Shown one piece after another: positions 1 to 26,959 of a stretch of DNA of 64,000 nt. The position numbers and the translations under genes were made by a program. Origin of the DNA: Eledone cirrhosa (taxonomy: Eukaryota); assembly GCA_964016885.1 (NCBI GenBank), contig OZ024742.1:18166001-18230000 (forward strand), given 5' to 3'. The stretch's first letter is position 1, and the number at the start of each line of letters is the position of its first letter. The notes below the pieces were generated by a model. It was not told the origin of the DNA. It did not search any database and was given only the letters and a program-made list of their open reading frames with translations.

Positions 1-2935
1 ATACTAATGCTAACATTAACGCTAACCTTAACACAAAAACAAAGACTAACGCTAACACAATCACTAACACTAATGGAAACATCTAACACTAATGCTAACA
101 GAGATACTAACACAAATATTAACACAAAAACAAATACTAACACTGAAACTAACACTAACGTTAACTTGAACGCTAACACTAACCTGAAAACTAAGCTAAC
201 ATTAACCTAAACACTAACACAAACGCTCATGCTAACACTAACAGAAATACTAATGCTAACATTAACACAAAAACAAAGACTAACGCTAACACAATCACTA
301 ACACTAATGGAAACATCAATTACTAATGCTAACAGAGATACTAACACAAATATTAACACAAAAACAAACACTAACACAATATCTAACACTAACCTTAACA
401 CTAAAACTAACATTAACACTAACACTAACCTGAACACTTACACTAAAACTAACATTAACCTAAACACTAGCACTAAAACTAACACTACCATAAACAGTAA
501 CACGAACACTGATCTGAGCACTAACACTAACATAAAAATTAACACTAAAAAAACCACTAACACTAACACTAACCTGAACACTAACACTAAAACTAACATG
601 AAAACTGATACTAACCAGAAAACTAAGCTAACATTAACCTCAACACTAAAACAAACACTAACATTAACAGAAAAACAAAGACTAGCACTATCACTAATGG
701 AAACACTAACACAAACATTAACACAAAATAAAACACTAACACTAATGGAAAAAATAACACTAACACTAAAACTAACACTACCGTAAACACTAACCTGAAC
801 ACTAACACTAAAACTGACATTAACACGAACATTAACCTGAACACTAACACTACCACTAAAACTAATACTACCATAAACCACTAACCTGAGCACTAACACT
901 AAAAGTAACACGAGCCCTAATCTGAAAACAAACACTACCCAGAAAACTAAGTCAACATTAACCTGAACACGAACACTAACCTGAACACTAACACTAACAA
1001 AAATGTTAACACTAATACAAAATCAAACACGAACACTAATGGAAACACTAACACTAACGCCAACGCTGACACTGACGAAGATGGCTATGCTGGCACAAAC
1101 GCTAGCGCAAATGTTGACACAATCGCTTACGCTGACACAAACACTAACGTGAATACTGATGCAGGTGCAAAGACGAATGCTGACAAAGACTGACGCACAC
1201 GCTGATGTAAATGCTACACAGACTCTAACGCTGACGTGGACACTGACACAAATGCTCACGCTGATGCAAACACTAAAGCAAATGCAGACACTAATGCAAA
1301 CACAGACGCAAATGTTGATGCAGATGTTAAAGCAAACGCAAACGATGACAGCGATGCTAATGTGAACCTTAATGCAGACGTAAACATTGGTGTAGAAGCT
1401 AAAGGAAACACTGATGCAAACACTAATGAAAATGCTGACACAGATGCTAACACACTTTAACACAGATGCTAACGTAAACACTGACGCAGACGCTAATATA
1501 AACACTGACGCAGATGCTAATATAAACACTGACGCAGACGCTAACATAAACGCTGACACAGATGCTAACACACGTTGACACAGACGCAAACGTAAATGAT
1601 GACGTAGTAGCTAACGTAAATGCTGACACAGACGCAAATGTAAACGCTGACACTGATGTAGATGTAAATGCAGACGCTGACGTAGAAGCTAACACAAACG
1701 CTGACGACACTAATGTAAGCGCTGACGTAGAAGCTGATGTAGATGCTGATGTAGAAGCTAAAGTAAATGATGACGTAGTTGTTACGTAGATGCAGGCGTA
1801 GAAGTTAGCGTTGACCCCTACCGTCGAAGCTGATCTCCAAAACGCAATTGCTGATGCGGATTGCTGAAGCCAAAGCCAAGCTAACGCTGACGCAAATGTT
1901 GAGGCAGTTTTGCCGGCGCTGACGTGTATGCTGACACTAACGCAAATGCTGATGCGGACGCTAGGGCTAAGGCTAACGCTAATGCTGATGCAAATGCTGA
2001 AGTTAACGCTTACATGGGATATGCAGACGCTGCAATGATGAGGACGCCACAGGAAAGGTTGATGGAAACGCCAATGCTAACGGAAACGCTGACCAAGACG
2101 TTACGGAAACGCTGACGTAGAAGCTAACGTAAACACTGACACAGACGCTAACGTAAACACTGACGTTAACTGAAACGCTGACGCTGATATAGATGTAAAT
2201 ACTGACGCTGACACAGACGTGGTCGGAAACGCTGACGTAGAAGCTAACGGAAACGCTGACGTAGAAGCTAACGGAAATGCTGACATAGAAGCTAACGGAA
2301 ATGCTGAGAAAGATGTTAAAGGAAACGCTGTCGCAAACGCTAATGCTAATGTGAACGCTGATGCTGACGCAAATGCTAACCCCTACACAAATGCAAACGC
2401 TGATGCTAACACTGACTCAAACACTAATGCAAATGCTGACGTGCACGCTGATGCAAACGCTGACACTGAGGGAAATGCTGACACTGACACAAGTGCTGAC
2501 GCGGACGCTAATGATAATTCTGACTCGGAAGCTGACGTAGACGCAGGCACTGAAACAAACACTAATGTTGACTCAGACGCTAAGGGAAATGCTGACACAA
2601 TGCTGACACAATCACTATCACCAATGCAGACGCTGACGCAAATGCCGACATAGATGCTGACACTTACGCAAACACTAAGGCTAATCCAAACACTAATGCA
2701 GATGCTAACACCATTCTACATAGACACTAACACAAAAGCTTACATAGACGCTTATGCAAATGCTAACGCTGATGCAGACAGTAACGCAAACAGTAACAGT
2801 AAGAGTAACAGTTACAGTAACACTAACAGTGACAGTAATGCTAACAGTAACACAGTCACTAACAATAAACTTACCATTAACAGTAAAACTTACCTTAACA
2901 CTAACCCTAAATCTAACATTAATCCAGAGAAAAAA
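1..2935. repeat. Degenerate hexamer-based low-complexity array, grading from (AACACT)n to (GCTGAC/GCTAAC)n
   Basis: Continuous aacact/actaac repeats for the first ~1 kb, then gctgac/gcaaac/gatgct variants. ORFs here are only T-N, L-T or A-N-A-D repeats broken by stops. Confidence 0.85.
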
Positions 2936-3019
2936 GTCATTTGCAATCACATTTAAGGTCACTCTTTAAGATATAGAAGATAGGCATTACATTTTAATGA
3001 TTTTAATGTAAAGAGAATC

Positions 3020-6000
3020 ACACTATACAATGCAACACAATAACGCACCACAGCACACTAACCTACACGACACCAAACCAGATTATACCATACCTTGGTA
3101 AATTTATAATAGGTTTCCATGTTATAACTCCACCAAACTAAACCATACCAAACTACACCAAACCAAACCTCACCATAACAAACTACACCATGCTATTAAT
3201 CTCAGTGAGAACATTTTTTCTGTGTGTGTGTGTGCTTACCACCCAATCTGATATCAAAGGTGCTCACAAATGACTATTTTTTTTACACATTATCAATGTA
3301 TATAACATGGAAACCTATCATTTGCAATAGGTTCCCATGTCATAACTACAACAATCCAAACCACACCATAACAAACTACACCATTCTACATCACACCATG
3401 CTTTTGATCTCAGTGTGAAAAATTTTCTTCCTGTTTCTTTTTTTTTGTGTGTTATTACCACCCAATCTGACATCAAAAGTGCTGCAATTGACTATTTTTC
3501 GCACATATTATCAATAATTATGACATGGAAAATTGTCGAAAATGACTAGCTTTGTAGAAAAAAGAGGGAGGATGTGGGTGGAAATACCATTTACAAAGAT
3601 AGTCATTTTTTATTGCAGCGGAAGTCATATTTTTTCTTAATATGCTAAAACCATAGTCCACTGCGAGCATCTTGGAAGTTGTATTAGTTGATAGCACATG
3701 CAAAAGTGAAGGAAAAAATTTTTTTCTTACATAAATCAAAGTGGAAATTTAATTACTTACTTATAACAAAGCACACCACACCACTTTTTTTTTTTTTTGT
3801 GGTTACCACCTCAAACTAACATCAAAGGTGCTTGCAAATGACTATTTTCCCCACACATTATCAATGAATATGACATGGGAATCTATCGTATACAATTGGT
3901 TTCCATTTCATAACTTCACCAAACCAAACCAAACCAAACCACACCATACCAAGTTACACCATACTACATCACACCAAGCTATTGATCTTGCTGTGAAACA
4001 TTTTCTTCCCGTTTCATTTTTTTCTTAATTCCCATTTCATATTTTTTGTTAATATGCTAAAAGCATAATCCACTGTGAGCATCTTGGAAGTTGATAGCAC
4101 ATGCAAAAATGAAGGAAAAATTTTTTTTCTAACATAAATCAAAGTGGAAATTTAAAACCTCACTTATAACAAAGAACACCACAGCACATTAATCTACCCC
4201 AATCCACACCATAAATTCACCATAACCATAGTTCACTATATGGTAAATTTATTACAGAACACCTAACATTTACATCACACCATGGTATGGAGATCAATGT
4301 GACAAATTTGCTACCTGCTTTTTTTTTTTTTTTTTTGTGGTTACCACCTCAAACTAACATCAAAGGTGCTTGCAAATGACTAATTTCCCCACACATTATC
4401 AATGAATATGACATGGGAATCTATCGTTTACAATTGGTTTCCATTTCATAACTTCACCAAACCAAACCACACCATACTACATTGCACTAACCTATTGATC
4501 TTGGTGTGAACCATTTTCTTCCCGTTTCCTTTTTTTTTTTTGTTGTTTGTGCTTACCACCCAATCTGACATTAAAGGTGCTCCCAATTGACTATTTTTTT
4601 TCTACTTATCAGTAATTATGACATGGAAACCTGTCGAAAATGACTATCTTTGTAGAAACTTCACCAAACCACACCATACTACATCACACCAAGCTATTGA
4701 TTTTGGTGTGACAAATTTTCATCTGGCATTTTTTTTTTTTTTTTTTTGTGCTTACCACCCAATTTGACATAAAAGGTGCTTGCAAATTACTATTTTATGC
4801 ACATATTATCAATGGTTATGACATGGAAACCTGATGAAAATGACTAGCTTTGTAGAAAAAAGAGGGAGGATGTGGGTGGAAATAACATTTACAAAGCTAG
4901 TCATTTTTTATTGCAGCGGAAGTCATATTTTTTGTTAATATGCTAAAAACATAATCCACTGCGAGCATCTTGGAAGTTGATAGCACATGCAAAAATGAAG
5001 GAAACATTTTTTATAACATAAATCAAAGTGGAAATTTAAATCCTCACTTATAACAAAGCACACCACAGCACATTAATCTACCCCAATCCACACCATAACC
5101 ATACTTCACTATATGGTAAATTTATTACAAAACACCTACTCCTACCATTTACATCACACCATGGTATGAACATCAATGTGACAAATTTGCTACCTGCTTT
5201 TTTTTTTTTTTTTTTTTTTGTGGTTACCACCCAAACTAACATCAAATGTGCCTGCAAATGACTATTTTCCCACACATTATCAATGAATATGACATGGGAA
5301 TCTATCGTATACAATTGGTTTCCATTTCATAACTTCATCAAACCACACCATACCAAACCACACCATACTACATCGCACCAATCTATTGATCTTGGTGTGA
5401 AAAATTTTTTTGTCGTTTCCTTTTTTTTTTTTTTTCTGTGTGCTTACCACCCAATCTGACATTACAGGTGCTCCCAATTGACTATTTTTTTCCACTAATC
5501 AATAATTATGACATGGAAACCTGTCGAAAATGACTATCTTTGTAGAAACTTCACCAAACCACACCATACTACATCACACCAAGTTATTGATTTTGGAGTG
5601 ACAAATTTTCATTTGGCATTTTTTTTTTTTTTTTTTTTTTGTGTGCTTACCACCCAATTTGACATAAATGGTGCATGCAAATTACTATTTTATGCACATA
5701 TTATCAATGGTTATGACATGGAAACCTGATGAAAATGACTAGTTTTGTAGAAAAAAGAGAGAGGATGTGGGTGGAAATACCATTTACAAAGCTAGTCATT
5801 TTTTATTGCAGTGGAAGTCATATTTTTTGTTAATATGCTAAAAGCATAGTGTACTGCGAGCATCTTGGAAGTTGATAGCACATGCAAAACTGAAGGAAAA
5901 ATTTTTTTCTAACATAAATCAAAGTGGAAATTTAAATCCTCACTTATAACAAATCACACCACAGCACATTAATCTACCCTAATCCACACCATATACTTCA

Positions 6001-6290
6001 CCATATGGTAAATTTATTACAGAACACCTACTCCTACCATTTACATCACACTAATGCTCGCAGTTGACTATTTTTTTCACATATTATGAATGAATATAAC
6101 TTTGAAACCTATCATCAATGATTAGCTTTGTAGAAAAATGAAGGCAGAAAGTGGGTGGAAAAACTATTCACAAAGCTAGTCATTTTTAATTGCAGTGGAA
6201 ATCATATTTGTTGTTAAAATGCTAAAAAAATAGTCAATTGCAAGCATTTTGGAGGTCGGATTAGTTGATAGGACATAAAAAAACAAAGGA
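3020..6290. repeat. Diverged tandem repeat with ~0.9-1.3 kb composite units
   Basis: gtagaaaaaagagggaggatgtgggtggaaa recurs at ~3555, ~4852 and ~5747, with a variant at ~6130. catcttggaagttgatagcacatgcaaaa and ttatgacatggaaacctg also recur. Confidence 0.8.
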
Positions 6291-6407
6291 ACACAAATAT
6301 TGTCTATATGTTCCTGTGGAAAGTCGGGTCTTCTGTATTACTGTGTGATGCCAGAGGTCATGGTCGTGTGTCATTGCCCTTGAGAGGTGCAATTGGGAAA
6401 GGTCGGC

Positions 6408-7345
6408 TTAGAAATATTTACTTCTGCGTTCACAGATCGATTTTTTTTTTTTTAGTTTCAGAAGATCCCATTAAGGGTCAAAGCAGCCGATTCTTTGCTT
6501 AAACTTTAATCTCTTATTTTAATAAATATTTGCTCTACGGTTCTTATATATTTGATATATATTTATCCTTATCGAGCCCTCTTTGGATGTTAGTCTTCAA
6601 ATTTATTATTATTACTATTTGGCTCCCTTGATTGAGTACTCTATTGACTTATATTCATCATGCAGAAACATCTGAATATTTCTACAAAGAACATACCCGT
6701 ACCAAGCAAGAAGAAATACCTAAAACTACGTCTCCACAAACCAAAGTATCGTCTTCCTGTCTTCCTTCGGTTGCAACGTTTTTCGAAATATTTACTTCTG
6801 CGTTCACAGATTGATTTTTTTCTTTTAATTTCAGAAGATCCCATTAAGGGTGAAAGCAGCCTATTATTTGCTTAAACTTTAATCAGTTATTTTAATAAAT
6901 ATTTGCTTTACGGTTCTTATATATTTGATATATATTTATCCTTATCGAGCCCTCTTTGGATGTTAGTCTTCAAATTTATTATTATTACTATTTGGCTCCC
7001 TTGATTGAGTACTCTATTGACTTATATTCATCATGCAGAAACATCTGAATATTTCTACAAAGAACATACCCGTACCAAGCAGGAAGAAATACCTAAAACT
7101 ACGTCTCCACGAACCAAAGTATCGTCTTCCTGTCTTCCTTCGGTTGCAACGTTTTCGAAATATTTACTTCTGCGTTCACAGATTGATTTTTTTTTTTTTA
7201 GTTTCAGAAGATCCCATTAAGGGTGAAAGCAGCCGATTCTTTGCTTAAACTTTAATGTTATTTTAATAAATATTTGCTCTACGGTTCTTATATAATTGAT
7301 ATATATTTATCCCTATCGAGCCCTCTTTGGATTTTAGTCTTCATA
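6408..7345. repeat. ~373-bp tandem duplication (~2.5 copies)
   Basis: Near-identical spurious ORFs at 6632/7005 and 6660/7033. aaatatttacttctgcgttcacaga occurs three times. Confidence 0.9.
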
Positions 7346-7358
7346 TGTATTATTATTA

Positions 7359-7390
<32 letters not shown>

Positions 7391-7437
7391 ATATATATAC
7401 AGTATATATATATATATATATATATACATACATACAT

Positions 7438-7805
7438 ATTGAGAGCATTGGCCTTGCAATCGAAAGGTTGTGAGTTCAATTCTCACACCGGGTGATGTGT
7501 TGTTTCCTTGAGCAAGACACTTTATTTCACATTGCTCCAGTTTACTCAGCTGTAGAAATGAGATGATAAGACTGGAGTCCCTATCATTCCACTGCAAAGT
7601 GGTCGTGGAGGTGCCACGGCAAAAAAGCACCCAGCCCACACTGTAAAGTGGATGTGGAGGTGCCACGGGAAAAAAGCACCCAGCACTCACTGTAAATGAG
7701 GTTGGTGTTAGGAAGGGCATTCAGCTGTAGAAATCAAGCCAGAATCAGTTCCCGTCCCACCCTTACAAGCAGGGAAAAAGTGGATGTAAAATGAAATGAT
7801 GATGA
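7438..7805 (+). mobile_element. tRNA-derived SINE (family A, RTE-like tail), 5'-clipped
   Basis: B-box gagttcaattc and a (gat)n tail. Nearly identical to 56239-56580. Confidence 0.8.
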
Positions 7806-8140
7806 ATGCTCCCAGCTGTGGTCACCCCATAGTATCAAACTAACCATGGAGCTTGAAGCAATCCAATGAAGCTACACCAAGAAGGTTGCCACGATGAAGG
7901 AGATAAACTACTGGGAGAGTCTAAAAGAACTGAAACTCTACTCTTCGGAATGAAGACGGGAGAGATATGCAATGATATACATATGGAAAATCCTGGGGGG
8001 GACTAAGACCAAACTTTCGCATCGAGAGCTGGACCAATTCTCGAACAGGACGTCATTGTGTGGTACCAAAGGTCCCGTCTTCCACATCTAAAATCAGGAG
8101 CAGCTATTGTAATAGCCTGGGGTTCAAAGGCCCTCAACTT
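7806..8140 (+). mobile_element. CR1/L2-group LINE ORF2 C-terminal fragment
   Basis: Manual translation gives ELEAIQ*SYTKKVATMKEINYWESLKELKLYSSE*RRERYAMIYIWKIL, typical of the CR1/L2 post-RT region, with stops. Confidence 0.65.
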
Positions 8141-8214
8141 GGTTTTCAAAATTTAAATTTGTGTTTCCTATTCATCAATGCTTCAATCAAGCTATAAAAC
8201 TCTGTTATATTGTT

Positions 8215-9020
8215 TACCGTGTCACCATCACGACCACTTTACAGTGTTTCAGTCTGTTCTCATGAAAGATATATTGGCGGGTGGGATGGAGTGGTGCATA
8301 CTGTATGTATGTTTCAGCCTTGGCCTGGGCCCGTGGGAAGTTGGGGTTTCTGTATTACCTCATAACGCCAGAGATCTTGGTCCTGTGTCATTGCCTTTCA
8401 GGGGTGCAATTGGGCAAGGTCGGCTTTTATCACTTCATCTCAAGTCTTTCTGGGACTTTATGTAGCTGTCATCCGTCATTCGAATCACATGTCCATACCA
8501 ACATAATCTCCTCTCCTGCACATTTGATTCCTCTTAGGCCTAGTTTCTCTTTCAGTTTGTTTATGCTTTGCTGTTCGCGTATATTACTATTACACATCCA
8601 TCGGAGCATACAAGCTTCATTCCTTTCTAATCTACGCAAGTCTTCTACACACAGCGCCCAGCTCTCACTACCATGCAACATTGCCGTTCATATGCACACA
8701 TCATACAGTCTACCTTTTATTCTGAGGGAAAAGCCTTTTGTATTTAGCTGTGACAGTAGCTCCCTCAACTTCTTCCATCCCGTTCTTTCAGAACCCCCCC
8801 CCCTCCTCTGCTGCTAATTCGGTATTGTTTTTACCAAGTCCTCCCAGACTTTGATGTCACTTGTTTTCAGTGATTGTCCTGCTTACTGTCCTGGTGCAAC
8901 TGCTACATGTAAAGCCTACATTCTTAACTAAACTTCCTGAGATCCCACTACATCTCTTGTGTACCCATAGTTTGCATATGGGGCAGAGGATGGAGTTTCT
9001 ACCTACACCTCTCCTACATA
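8215..9020 (-). mobile_element. Degenerate RTE LINE 3' fragment
   Basis: MLHGSESWALCVEDLRRLERNEACMLRWMC and CSLCRRGVGRNSILCPICKLWVHKRCSG match the RTE ORF at 56.7-59.1 kb. Confidence 0.9.
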
Positions 9021-9309
9021 ATGAGCACACACACACATATATATATACACACACTCACATATATATATATACTATCCGAATTACCAGCGCCTTGCTGCGT
9101 TTCACACATTTTTTTTTGTAAGAAAATGATGATTGATTTTAAATCAGTGATATAATTTATGGAGAAAAACTCAATATTACTCAATGTAAAATATAATGCA
9201 TGAAAAATTGGAAAACATCATTTTTTGTAATATATCAAATCAAAATTGCATTATTAAATCTTATTCTTATTTTGTTTCTTGTAAATAATTTTTTTCAAAA
9301 TATCAATTG

Positions 9310-9830
9310 AAAACTTTTGTGAATAGGCATATCTTATCATTTACCTATGGTTTAAGTTTCATATAAATCGAAAGGGAAAAGTTTTCAGCGGGGGTTTGTA
9401 CCCCCGGGGAACCCTAATAGGGAGTTTAACCACCATTAAGGTGTCTTATAGTATTGAAATTTTGTGAATAGGCATCATATCTCTTCATTTATCTATGGTT
9501 TAAATTGCATATAAATCGAACCGAAAACATTTTCAGCGGGGATTTTGTGCCCCCTGGTGAACCCTAATAGGGGGTTTAACCCCCATTAGGGTATTTTAAT
9601 TTTATTGAAATTTGCTTAAATTTTGTGAATAGGCATCATATCTTGTCATTTACCTATGGTTTAAATTTCATATAAATCAAAGGTAAAGTTTCAGCGGCGG
9701 TTTTGTGCCCCCGATGAACCTTTTGATTAAAATGAAATATACTTATACAAGTACCCTGGGCAATGTAGTTTCAGAATATATATGGTTATGGGGTCTATCT
9801 CCAAAACCATAGGAGGAGTTCGTAAAATCT
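9310..9830. repeat. Three diverged ~165-bp tandem units, probably internal to an unclassified element that continues at 10470-10545
   Basis: ttttgtgaataggcat...aaccctaataggggg tttaacccccattagg is repeated, and the motif resumes after the MITE. Confidence 0.6.
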
Positions 9831-9832
9831 TG

Positions 9833-10461
9833 GGCATAGGTTAATTATAACGTTCGAGAAAGTGAAAGTCAATTTTCTGACAAGTGAATGTGTTTGTTTG
9901 TTTTTTTTACATTGAAATTTACGATACAGTTTGTTTATTTACAACAGGTCTCTATAGTGATATGGTGTTAATTAGTATTGCGTGTGTGATTATTTTCTCT
10001 TATATATATATGTGTGGGTGTGTATATATATGTGTGTCTGTATGTATATATATATGTGTGTTTGTATATATATATGTGTTTGTGTCATCATCATCGTTTA
10101 GATGTTTTTACCCAAATCCCTTATCATTCTCTGTCCTTCTTATGACCCGGCCTTAATTTGTTTATAGCTGGTGCCAACTTTGGCAAGATATTATAAAAAC
10201 ATCTAAACGATGATGATGACACAAACACATATATATACAAACACATATATATATACATACAGACACACATATATATACACACATATATATATAAGAGAAA
10301 ATAATCACACACGCAATACTAATTAACACCATATCACTATAGAGACCTGTTGTAAATAAACAAACTGTATCGTAAATTTCAATGTAAAAAAAACAAAAAA
10401 ACACATTCACTTGTCAGAAAAATGACTTTCACTTTCTCGAACGTTATAATTAACCTATGCC
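9833..10461. mobile_element. Fold-back MITE with ~275-bp TIRs and 8-bp TSD (Merlin-type ends)
   Basis: Begins GGCATAGGTTAATTATAACG and ends with its reverse complement. AAATCTTG is duplicated at 9825-9832 and 10462-10469. Confidence 0.9.
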
Positions 10462-10559
10462 AAATCTTGTTCCATTTATTGGCCAAACTTTTCACTATAG
10501 GGCGTTTAACCCCCATTAGGGTGTCTTAATATTATTGAAATTTGCACACACACACACAC

Positions 10560-10704
10560 ATGAAAATATGTGACGTCATTCGTCAACCTTCCCCTACTTT
10601 CACTTCTGACAGCTAATACCATGAACTGTAAAAATACAGTTCATGGTATTAGCTGTCAGAAGTGAAAGTAGGGGAAGGTTGACGAATGATGTCACATATT
10701 TTCA
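10560..10704. repeat. Near-perfect ~70-bp-arm palindrome at the Merlin left end
   Basis: ...ctgacagctaataccatgaactgta-aaaa-tacagttcatggtattagctgtcag..., with a 4-nt loop and one visible mismatch. Confidence 0.9.
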
Positions 10705-11008
10705 TAGTTATGGTTATCAATATAAAAAACAAGTCATTTTCATCAACAGTGGAGTTAACTTAAATGAAAATATAGGTGGCCCTTAAAAGGGCCAAATTAT
10801 AGTTATCAAATTTTCTTCACCAACCTTATATATTTATGAAGAAATGTTTAGAAAACAAATTATTTTCACCAACCTTATTCAAAAGCATGGATACAGTGCC
10901 CATGGAGACAATCCCCACCAATCAGCAACAATCATCACCAACACCACGTGTAAATAAATAAACTTTAATCTTTACTTTGTGATAATACACGCATCTGCAA
11001 GTTGAAAA

Positions 11009-11911
11009 ATGAGTCCTATAATATATCCAAGTGTTAAGGGAATTAACCATCGCGATCTTTCCATCGCTACTACAGCAGATACCGTCAATTGGTTGAAAAT
11101 TCAAGGACTTCTGAATACACAAAAGGTCTGCCCTTCATGTGGTCAACGTATGTTGGAAGTAGCGAAACAAAATGTGTCAGATGGGATTATCTGGTCATGT
11201 AAAAGACCATGTAGAAAACAGGTTTCTATTAGAAAAGGCACATTTTCTAAAAATAGCAATTTGAAGTGTGAACAAATAGTTGATATATTATATTTTGGGG
11301 CAAAAGAAGATTTAGCCAAGAAGATTTCAGAGGAATGTCGTATCGCGAATGTGGCCGTAGCAGATTGGCGAAATTTTTGCCGTGATGTATGTGCAGAGTA
11401 CTATGTGGCACAAAACATTAAGCTTGGCGGGCCAAACCGAATTGTCGAGATTGATGAAAGCACATTCGTGAGAAGGAAATACCATCGTGGCCATTCTGTG
11501 AAAACACAGTGGGTTTTTGGTGCTTTGGAAAGAAGTACCAGAAGATGTATTTTAGTAGCAGTAGAAGACAGGACAGCGGAGACACTTTTAACCATTATAC
11601 AGGATCGTATATTACCAGGGACAACCATAATATCTGATCTATGGCGTTCCTATAATACGATCGATCAGCTAGGCTATCAACATTTGACGGTGAACCATTC
11701 GATCAATTTTGTTGATCCAGTAACATTTGCCACAACGAATCACATAGAATGCTTGTGGAAACACGTAAAAAATAGGAATAAAAGGGAAAACGGGATAGCC
11801 AGAAATGTGCTTCAAACCCATCTCATTGAATTCATGTGGCGGTATGAATTTAAAGGAGAAATTTTCCAAAAGTTATTAGAACATATCCGTCATCTGATTC
11901 CATGCATTTGA
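11009..11911 (+). CDS. Merlin/ISXO2-family DDE transposase, apparently intact (300 aa)
   Basis: N-terminal Zn ribbon CPSC...WSCKRPC. Catalytic motifs VEIDES, IISDLWRSY, H.TVNHS..FVDP and TNHIECLW. No stops or frameshifts. Confidence 0.93.
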   Translation: MSPIIYPSVKGINHRDLSIATTADTVNWLKIQGLLNTQKVCPSCGQRMLEVAKQNVSDGIIWSCKRPCRKQVSIRKGTFSKNSNLKCEQIVDILYFGAKEDLAKKISEECRIANVAVADWRNFCRDVCAEYYVAQNIKLGGPNRIVEIDESTFVRRKYHRGHSVKTQWVFGALERSTRRCILVAVEDRTAETLLTIIQDRILPGTTIISDLWRSYNTIDQLGYQHLTVNHSINFVDPVTFATTNHIECLWKHVKNRNKRENGIARNVLQTHLIEFMWRYEFKGEIFQKLLEHIRHLIPCI

Positions 11912-12048
11912 ATAAGGTTGGTGAAAAAAATGTTTCTAAACATGCTTTTGAATAAGGTTGGTGAATAATGAAAATATAAATCAATAAATCAAATTTATTT
12001 GATAACCATGACTTGTTTTCTAATTAACTTAAATTTGTTTTCTAATTT

Positions 12049-12069
12049 GGCCCTTTTAAGGGCCACCTA
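12049..12069 (+). other. Histone 3'-UTR-type stem-loop motif
   Basis: GGCCCT-TTTA-AGGGCC-ACCTA, ~137 nt after the transposase stop. A mirror copy lies on the - strand at 10773-10793. Confidence 0.6.
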
Positions 12070-13395
12070 TATTTTCATTTAAGTAACTCCACTTACATCG
12101 ATATGCTTTATAACCATGACTTGTTTTCTAATTTGGCCCTTTTAAGTCTTCCCTCTCTCTCTCCTCCCCCTTTCACCCCCCCCCCCCTCTCCAAAATACG
12201 CGTGAAAACTCCACTTACGCGTGGTAGTAATACGGAAATAAACGATGTTTGACGAGTGACGTCACCTTCGCCTGTTTCCATCGGCTGCTTGGACTGACAG
12301 CTAATAGCGTTGTAGTGCCTATATATTGACTCATATTTCTTTTTGATATAAAATATCTGATTGTATAATATATATCTTTAACAAGAATGGTATTGTTTCA
12401 TCCATAAGCTTGGCTGGTCTCGCTTGGGAATCCAGCCGTATAAGTTGGAGATAATTGTTTCTGACAGGACCTGCTGGAAGGAGTGTTTGAGGACTTTCTC
12501 AGAGTTAAATTCATCGCTGTTAGGAAATGATTTGTGGGGAATTTAGCAGCTATTTTTAGCTCAGTGACTGTTCTCTTGATGATTCCGGGAGTGTATGTTT
12601 GTCAGTTATTTCGCTGCCCAAGATCATCTTTTATAAAGCAGATCCATAAACAAAAGTATGTATTTAATGTGACATTCTTTAAATAAAAAAAAAAACGGCT
12701 GTGTGATTTGAGGGAGATTTAGCTGCTATTTCTAACAGGTCGATCGACGACATAGAGAGAGAGAGACTGGTGGTCATGTATATTTTGAAATGATGTAGAT
12801 GTGTATGGTGGGTGACTTTCATTTATGTCGCTACTAAAGGGTTTGTTTTACATAAAATGACCACTCTTACATTTTCTGTTATATCACTGATTGTTTTTTC
12901 TGTTATATCACTGAAATTAAATTATTATTTTGGATTACTTTGATTATTTTTGAAACATGTTACGATATATTCGCCTGTGTAAATATAAATATAGATGCTG
13001 GGATGTTAATTTAAATATAAACAGACGTATATACATAGACAAGTACTGAATTCCTTACGTAATTTTTTTTTACATCAATTGAAAAATTAGAATCATTATA
13101 AATATAATGGTGAGAAAAAAGTTCAACTACCTTTTTCTGTAATTCCGTCAATGGGAAAGAAGAGAGTTTTGCTGGATATATCAGCTTCGGCCGTCATAAT
13201 TTGTTCCCCCTAATTTGAAATAATCGTTGTTTGTGTAATAAATGACCGAATTCCACACAACGAAATAGTCCACTGTTTCATCACCACTGCTGTTGCAATA
13301 TCAAACTTTTTGGTAAATTAGATTATACTTTAATAGAAAGGGAGAAAAATATAACTTAATGTTTGTTACAGTGCGTCCTTTATATATATATATAT

Positions 13396-26885: not shown

Positions 26886-26959
26886 AGGCTCCAGAGGGAT
26901 TTGAACACTTGACCTCCAGTTTACTAGACTGGTGCTCTAACCAACTGAGCTATGGGGCC
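26886..26959 (-). tRNA. tRNA-Thr(AGT), likely pseudogene
   Basis: GGCCCCATAGCTCAGTTGGTTAGAGCA-CCAGT-CTAGTAA-ACTGG...TTCAAATCCCTCTGGAGCCT. One acceptor-stem and two T-stem mismatches. A T-run terminator lies ~10 nt downstream. Confidence 0.75.

Follow-up and report, generated by a model that had tools for sequence, protein, structure and literature searches.

The window, a 64,000-nt stretch of Eledone cirrhosa DNA (GCA_964016885.1, contig OZ024742.1, positions 18,166,001 to 18,230,000, forward strand), contains the right-hand portion of a Merlin DNA transposon. The transposase is encoded on the plus strand at 11009–11911 by a single open, intronless frame of 300 aa, which matches DDE_Tnp_IS1595 (PF12762; E 2e-19, 70 bits) and retains three intact motif blocks that we take to be the D/D/E motifs. 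Its nearest named relatives are Octopus proteins (62–86% identity). The right terminal inverted repeat (TIR), which starts with GG, lies on the minus strand at 12294–12319 and is followed by an 8-bp target duplication at 12320–12327; genomic copies share the sharp end at 12319. The left TIR was located at C3:18,130,166, some 35.8 kb before the window starts, where the same TIR is accompanied by a perfect 8-bp duplication. Both ends begin GGCAC and are identical over their first 27 nt. With GG-starting TIRs, an 8-bp target duplication and a DDE_Tnp_IS1595 frame, the element is a Merlin, as a preliminary description of this locus had held.

Running from C3:18,130,166 to window position 12319, the copy is a giant Merlin of 48 kb. 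Four further copies were traced over 47 kb. Two of them, largely collinear, measure 23.6 kb (copy D, duplication 8/8) and 22.1 kb (copy C, 7/8). In copy B the left TIR lacks a matching duplication, and no left TIR was found for copy A; the duplication of the window copy is 8/8. Giant copies with matching TIRs and target duplications reside at C1:392.475–392.499 Mb and C2:143.995–144.017 Mb, and several TIR pairs spaced 22–31 kb apart suggest that there are more. Compact forms (1.75–2.2 kb) and MITEs are also present, with an 8/8 target duplication in four of five compact or MITE copies. Divergence of copies from their consensus is approximately 1.3%, which suggests recent activity.

Most of the element that falls within the window is cargo (1–10559), consisting of tandem repeats and other repeat fragments that comparison of copies shows to be common to other copies. 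Giant Merlin cargo includes reverse-transcriptase remnants and low-complexity repeats; here, a long hexamer repeat coding for Thr/Asn/Ala occupies 1–2900, and about 1,300–640 nt upstream of the first window base lies a 224-codon lysine-rich repeat frame (L136) that resembles a linker-histone tail in composition. A MITE of another Merlin family, bearing its own 8-bp target duplication, is nested at 9833–10461 and is absent from other copies; its family has 65 exact ends genome-wide and intact 330-aa partner ORFs (L186–L191). At 10560–10705, a hairpin with 71-nt arms derives from a remnant of an older-type TIR, the former left end of a compact element. A tRNA match at 26886–26959 on the minus strand (54.8 bits) could be the head of a SINE.

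On the plus strand at 12049–12064, starting 137 nt 3′ of the transposase stop, is a 16-nt histone-type stem-loop (6-bp stem, 4-nt loop) followed by ACCTA, with the G2–C pair and U at loop positions 1 and 3. Scored against Rfam Histone3 (RF00032), as had been proposed, it reaches 34.0 bits, exactly the gathering score (cut-off 34). The preliminary description had reported this motif about 137 nt behind an intact, intronless ORF, with a truncated copy at 12135–12146 and an AATAAA near 11983. Coordinates and spacing were reproduced, the truncated copy is present at the end of a short internal duplication (12107–12146, plus strand), and the AATAAA lies at 11983–11988. The stem-loop consensus plus ACC occurs twice in the window versus never in 200 mononucleotide shuffles. 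Upstream of the ORF and antisense to it, the left arm carries a mirror copy (about 10748–10799, minus strand), in which the stem-loop and 30 nt of flank occupy 10748–10793; it scores 37 bits at 10753–10798, above the right-arm motif. The two copies flank the ORF as an inverted repeat that is perfect over 42 nt and extends to 52 nt with one gap. Upstream of the right-arm stem-loop, 11983–12022 has the layout of a canonical poly(A) site that may be functional: the AATAAA begins 71 nt after the ORF stop, a CA follows 18 nt further on (12007–12008), and a GU/U-rich stretch comes next. A SINE-like tail at 12110 was considered and rejected, as the A-rich loose ends there match arm sequence of other subfamilies.

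The origin of the stem-loop was traced by comparison with 36 distinct host histone 3′ ends bearing a stem-loop, a set that leaves out seven histone frames without one. The 48 nt 3′ of the element stem are identical at 47 positions to one host H4 gene (C7:67.458 Mb), which is intact and paired with an intact H3; matches number 29–40 for other H4 genes and at most 35 for other histones among these 36 ends. The loop differs from the donor at position 4 (A for C), an A-loop found in 6 of the 36 host ends. An AAGT-like motif near +16 to +20 is common to the host histone ends, often with a GATATG-like motif beyond. The element has both: its captured downstream flank (12065–12111, plus strand) contains AAGT at +17 to +20, which is likely the histone downstream element, and a GATATG-like motif, and the downstream element matches that of host H4 in sequence and in position, about 15 nt past the cleavage site. 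The earlier view that no U7-binding element follows the stem-loop is thus wrong for this host, as the downstream sequence is the H4 gene's own. Among host genes, the GATATG-like motif lies roughly 35–45 nt 3′ of the stem in all four core histone classes and could guide a search for mollusc U7.

Non-autonomous relatives carry longer portions of the same gene. One (L048) extends 28 nt into the H4 coding sequence, while another (L092) carries the H4 locus to about +590, with 19 mismatches in 426 positions. Relative to the H4 stop, the retained length varies among derivatives from −28 to about +590, and the ORF-bearing lineage keeps only +35 to +98. Because derivatives reach into the H4 coding end and out to +590, the transfer ran from H4 to the transposon. 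Judged by these alignments, the stem-loop is a copied 3′ end of host H4, present on both arms of one Merlin lineage, and the matches show the donor to be this H4 gene (C7:67.458 Mb) or a close ancestor of it. The motif's histone identity is therefore stronger than proposed, being by descent and including the downstream element. The fallback that had been offered, a palindromic transposase-binding site, leaves the origin unexplained. A single genome contains the donor gene, the breakpoint and sister lineages with and without the piece, which makes the capture traceable.

Phylogeny of 35 ORF copies groups the stem-loop carriers into a single clade (support 100). A separately built protein tree concurs (99/96), with four Octopus proteins falling outside that clade. 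The captured piece is missing from two full-length sister elements (L164 and L184), which have a TIR type of their own and target duplications that are perfect or 7/8, and from the outgroup (L176) as well. Capture thus likely happened once, in one Merlin lineage. In other Merlin families, no stem-loop was found within about 2 kb of the ORF at any of 20 loci. Within the lineage, 36 of 41 ORF-linked 3′ regions carry the stem-loop, 25 of them perfect and 11 altered, and the best-sampled recent subfamily is a carrier. Compensatory stem changes, for which a check had been proposed, are absent from the 11 altered stems (seven break a pair, three give G–U, and one is a deletion), an outcome that private mutations in dead copies would produce under any model.

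The cassette has spread well beyond the ORF-bearing copies. A genome-wide Histone3 search returned 75 matches; among the top 30 examined, three lie behind an intact H4 and 27 in foldback repeats, transposon-borne loci that would mislead histone annotation. Exact 35-nt contexts comprise 391 with the ORF-type junction and 59 that keep the H4 5′ flank. These 59 belong to ORF-less foldback MITEs in which two complete cassettes stand in opposite orientation, and they could cut host transcripts. Such foldback Merlin MITEs of about 600–800 bp (L046–L074, many on C18) make up most of the Histone3 hits; a spacing of 45 nt separates their two H4 3′ cassettes, and the 5′ flank is intact. In total, at least 450 exact element-borne stem-loop contexts outnumber the stem-loop histone genes, of which 51 were found.

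No shared changes separate basal from recent subfamilies in the 45 positions of stem-loop and downstream element, versus 52 of 872 for the ORF. This conservation is not specific, because the neighboring non-H4 UTR (0/130) and the antisense copy (0/46) are equally unchanged and the arms overwrite each other. In two elements (L163 and L185), the left arm was copied from the right arm; such alignments show that the captured piece occupies both arms and that these have overwritten one another. Constraint specific to the stem-loop was considered and set aside, as it is inseparable from general arm homogenization. Shared synonymous/nonsynonymous codon changes number 19/21, 13/9 and 43/26, versus 24/106 for private changes. 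From this synonymous enrichment, it follows that the transposase was under selection before and after capture, and purifying selection after capture in turn implies that it was expressed with the captured 3′ region. In three contig sets, depth over 11962–12123 far exceeds that over the ORF, a quantity that measures neither copy number nor expression.

Several features bear on whether the stem-loop could serve as a functional histone-type 3′ end. The capture junction falls exactly at the first G of the stem, so the ORF-linked version has lost the H4 5′ flank. An A at −3 is found in 35 of 36 host histone ends versus 0 of 36 element copies in register (one element copy shows it only via a register shift), bearing out the earlier caveat that the 5′ flank is not A-rich. 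Full affinity of human SLBP depends on two 5′ adenines (PMC10388802). The 137 nt between stop and stem-loop compare with 19–40 nt in host histone genes; a preprint (bioRxiv 10.64898/2026.10.14.759114) puts the metazoan median at 30 nt and describes 25–60 nt as critical for stability control, a range the element exceeds. The poly(A) hexamer AATAAATC lies 5′ of the stem-loop in 33 of 36 copies, basal ones included, so the region ahead of the stem-loop is not free of poly(A) signals as a histone-type transcript would have it. The transcript would be intronless, in keeping with the single 300-aa frame. In predicted folds, the hairpin forms fully (pair probabilities 0.85–1.0) when the transcript starts after the left arm and is fully sequestered when the left arm is included. 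Folding of 11909–12150 is not better than that of shuffles (z −1.09). A U7 snRNA candidate was rejected: it scored a sub-threshold 29.7 bits, had no U2-type upstream motifs and paired weakly even with H4. The stem-loop is unlikely to form the 3′ end of the transposase mRNA, on sequence grounds. The proposal that it places this mRNA under S-phase or oocyte control is thus not supported, given the lost 5′ flank, the 137-nt spacing, the upstream hexamer, the equal antisense copy and the sister elements without the motif.

Merlin ends are concentrated beside histone genes. The family of the window element has 690 exact TIR ends in 3.0 Gb, of which eight lie within 2.5 kb of the 51 stem-loop histone genes (0.036 expected), in four clusters on two chromosomes, and nine fall in 380 kb around histone hits (0.09 expected). 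In a second Merlin family, which lacks the captured piece and has 392 ends, four ends lie within 2.5 kb of these 51 genes versus 0.020 expected, from two elements in one cluster. Both families are thus strongly enriched beside histone genes, by about 200-fold over the genome average, with the qualification that the counts are small and partly non-independent, that the baseline is the genome average and that regions were chosen with some hits already known. One giant copy ends approximately 70 nt behind an H3 stem-loop. The U2 snRNA control gave no ends at 30 loci, a weak comparison as 27 of these belong to one tandem array. The enrichment may stem from a general preference for open chromatin. 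Flank CpG o/e was 0.79 for 33 insertions versus 0.46 and 0.66 in two backgrounds, a weak hint. Insertion bias at histone loci likely provided a direct route to H4 capture. Several Merlin families are found between or just behind histone genes in the C2 and C7 clusters (L208, L210, L211, L214, L218, L219, L223). On chromosome C1, a few kb often separate an end of one of these two Merlin families from an end of the other, which suggests shared hotspots or nesting.

The reading we favor, and consider probable, is that the H4 3′ end on both arms was likely copied once and likely travels as a passenger, with the transposase mRNA predicted to be polyadenylated upstream of it. Merlin ends gather beside histone genes, and an ancestor next to the H4 gene would have copied flanking DNA via template switching during gap repair. 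Derivatives have kept H4-derived pieces of differing lengths, with +35 to +98 alone in the ORF lineage, and the piece occupies both arms, which have overwritten each other. Cut at the AATAAA site, some 40 nt ahead of the stem-loop, most transposase mRNA would lose the stem-loop, and the lack of the 5′ adenine would weaken SLBP binding on any read-through RNA. The passenger interpretation is further supported by the occurrence of the cassette, 5′ flank intact, in foldback MITEs that have no ORF, and by an antisense copy as conserved as the sense copy. Against it, the retained piece consists of just the stem-loop and downstream element, cut at the first stem G, which selection could also yield; the unchanged sequence of the piece, its predicted full folding and the purifying selection on the transposase after capture weigh against it too. 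In a rival reading the cassette is used, with SLBP and the U7 snRNP cleaving at least part of the transposase pre-mRNA after the stem-loop to give a non-polyadenylated mRNA of the S-phase or oocyte type. We regard such use as unlikely, though it has points in its favor: a complete stem-loop and host downstream element lie in the right order on the sense strand behind an intronless ORF, unchanged across subfamilies and predicted to fold, in 36 of 41 ORF-linked regions and in the best-sampled recent subfamily. Furthermore, SLBP can be bypassed in mammalian extracts where pairing with U7 is strong (PMC5435866). These points are countered by the lost −3 adenine, the long spacing and the upstream hexamer, by the antisense mirror copy and the sister elements and other families without the motif, and by the predicted full sequestration of the stem-loop in transcripts that include the left arm. 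The fuller scenario, in which Merlins target histone clusters, one lineage hijacked the H4 cassette for an SLBP-bound, poly(A)-less transposase mRNA of S phase or oogenesis, and MITEs scatter complete signals genome-wide, appears more doubtful still.

A role at the level of DNA, in which the captured piece acts as a subterminal hairpin, a binding site or a homing sequence toward histone loci, strikes us as improbable. It would account for the symmetry of the two arms, for retention in MITEs and for window-family insertions in histone neighborhoods mostly carrying the piece. However, sister elements with perfect or 7/8 target duplications do without it, and the piece-less Merlin family is similarly enriched at histone genes, albeit on the basis of only two elements in one cluster; homing via captured DNA, tried as an explanation of the insertion bias, is weakened by that second family. 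Least credible of all, and very nearly dismissed, is a chance or convergent palindrome without histone ancestry: location in an inverted-repeat arm and the lack of compensation in all 11 altered stems suit it, but the 47/48 downstream identity to one H4 and the relatives that reach H4 coding sequence do not. The lineage is a natural setting in which to ask whether histone-type 3′ processing can serve a transposon.

As defined in PMC8101967, Merlins have GG-starting TIRs, 8–9 bp target duplications, a single DDE_Tnp_IS1595 ORF and internal repeats. The window element shares its TIRs, target duplication, single ORF and internal repeats with this superfamily (IS1595/IS1016-related), and differs from described Merlins in carrying a host H4 3′ end on both arms and in occurring as compact (1.75–2.2 kb) and giant (22–48 kb) forms. 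In the accessible portions of these sources, the word "histone" is absent from PMC8101967, "Merlin" is absent from a review of giant transposons (PMC6431247), and a study of O. vulgaris repeats (PMC13282606) mentions Merlin once, in a table, and histone never. Within a literature search whose scope excluded subscription papers, supplements and Repbase, we found neither a description of a transposon with a histone stem-loop nor one of Merlins at histone genes; the roughly 200-fold enrichment and the 22–48 kb forms are likewise Merlin traits for which no description was found.

Compared with the 3′ ends of replication-dependent histone mRNAs, the element has a stem-loop, ACC and downstream AAGT that derive from a genuine H4 gene, with an Rfam score at the cut-off, whereas it lacks the 5′ adenine, lies 137 nt from the stop of a non-histone ORF behind a poly(A) hexamer, and has an antisense duplicate. 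P elements exhibit insertion hotspots and homing. Merlin insertions are similarly concentrated at particular loci, but the histone-cluster bias is common to a Merlin family without captured DNA, which argues against homing of the P-element kind. Pack-MULEs are TIR transposons known to capture host gene fragments. Here too, a host gene fragment with an identifiable donor sits between TIRs flanked by a target duplication and has spread by transposition. Unlike Pack-MULEs (sizes of which are given in PMC6431247), the carrier is a Merlin rather than a Mutator element, the host is an animal, the fragment is an RNA-processing signal rather than exons, and copies that encode a transposase have it too. 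TIR transposons are known to take up host fragments, and the uptake of an H4 processing signal by a Merlin appears to be a new case.
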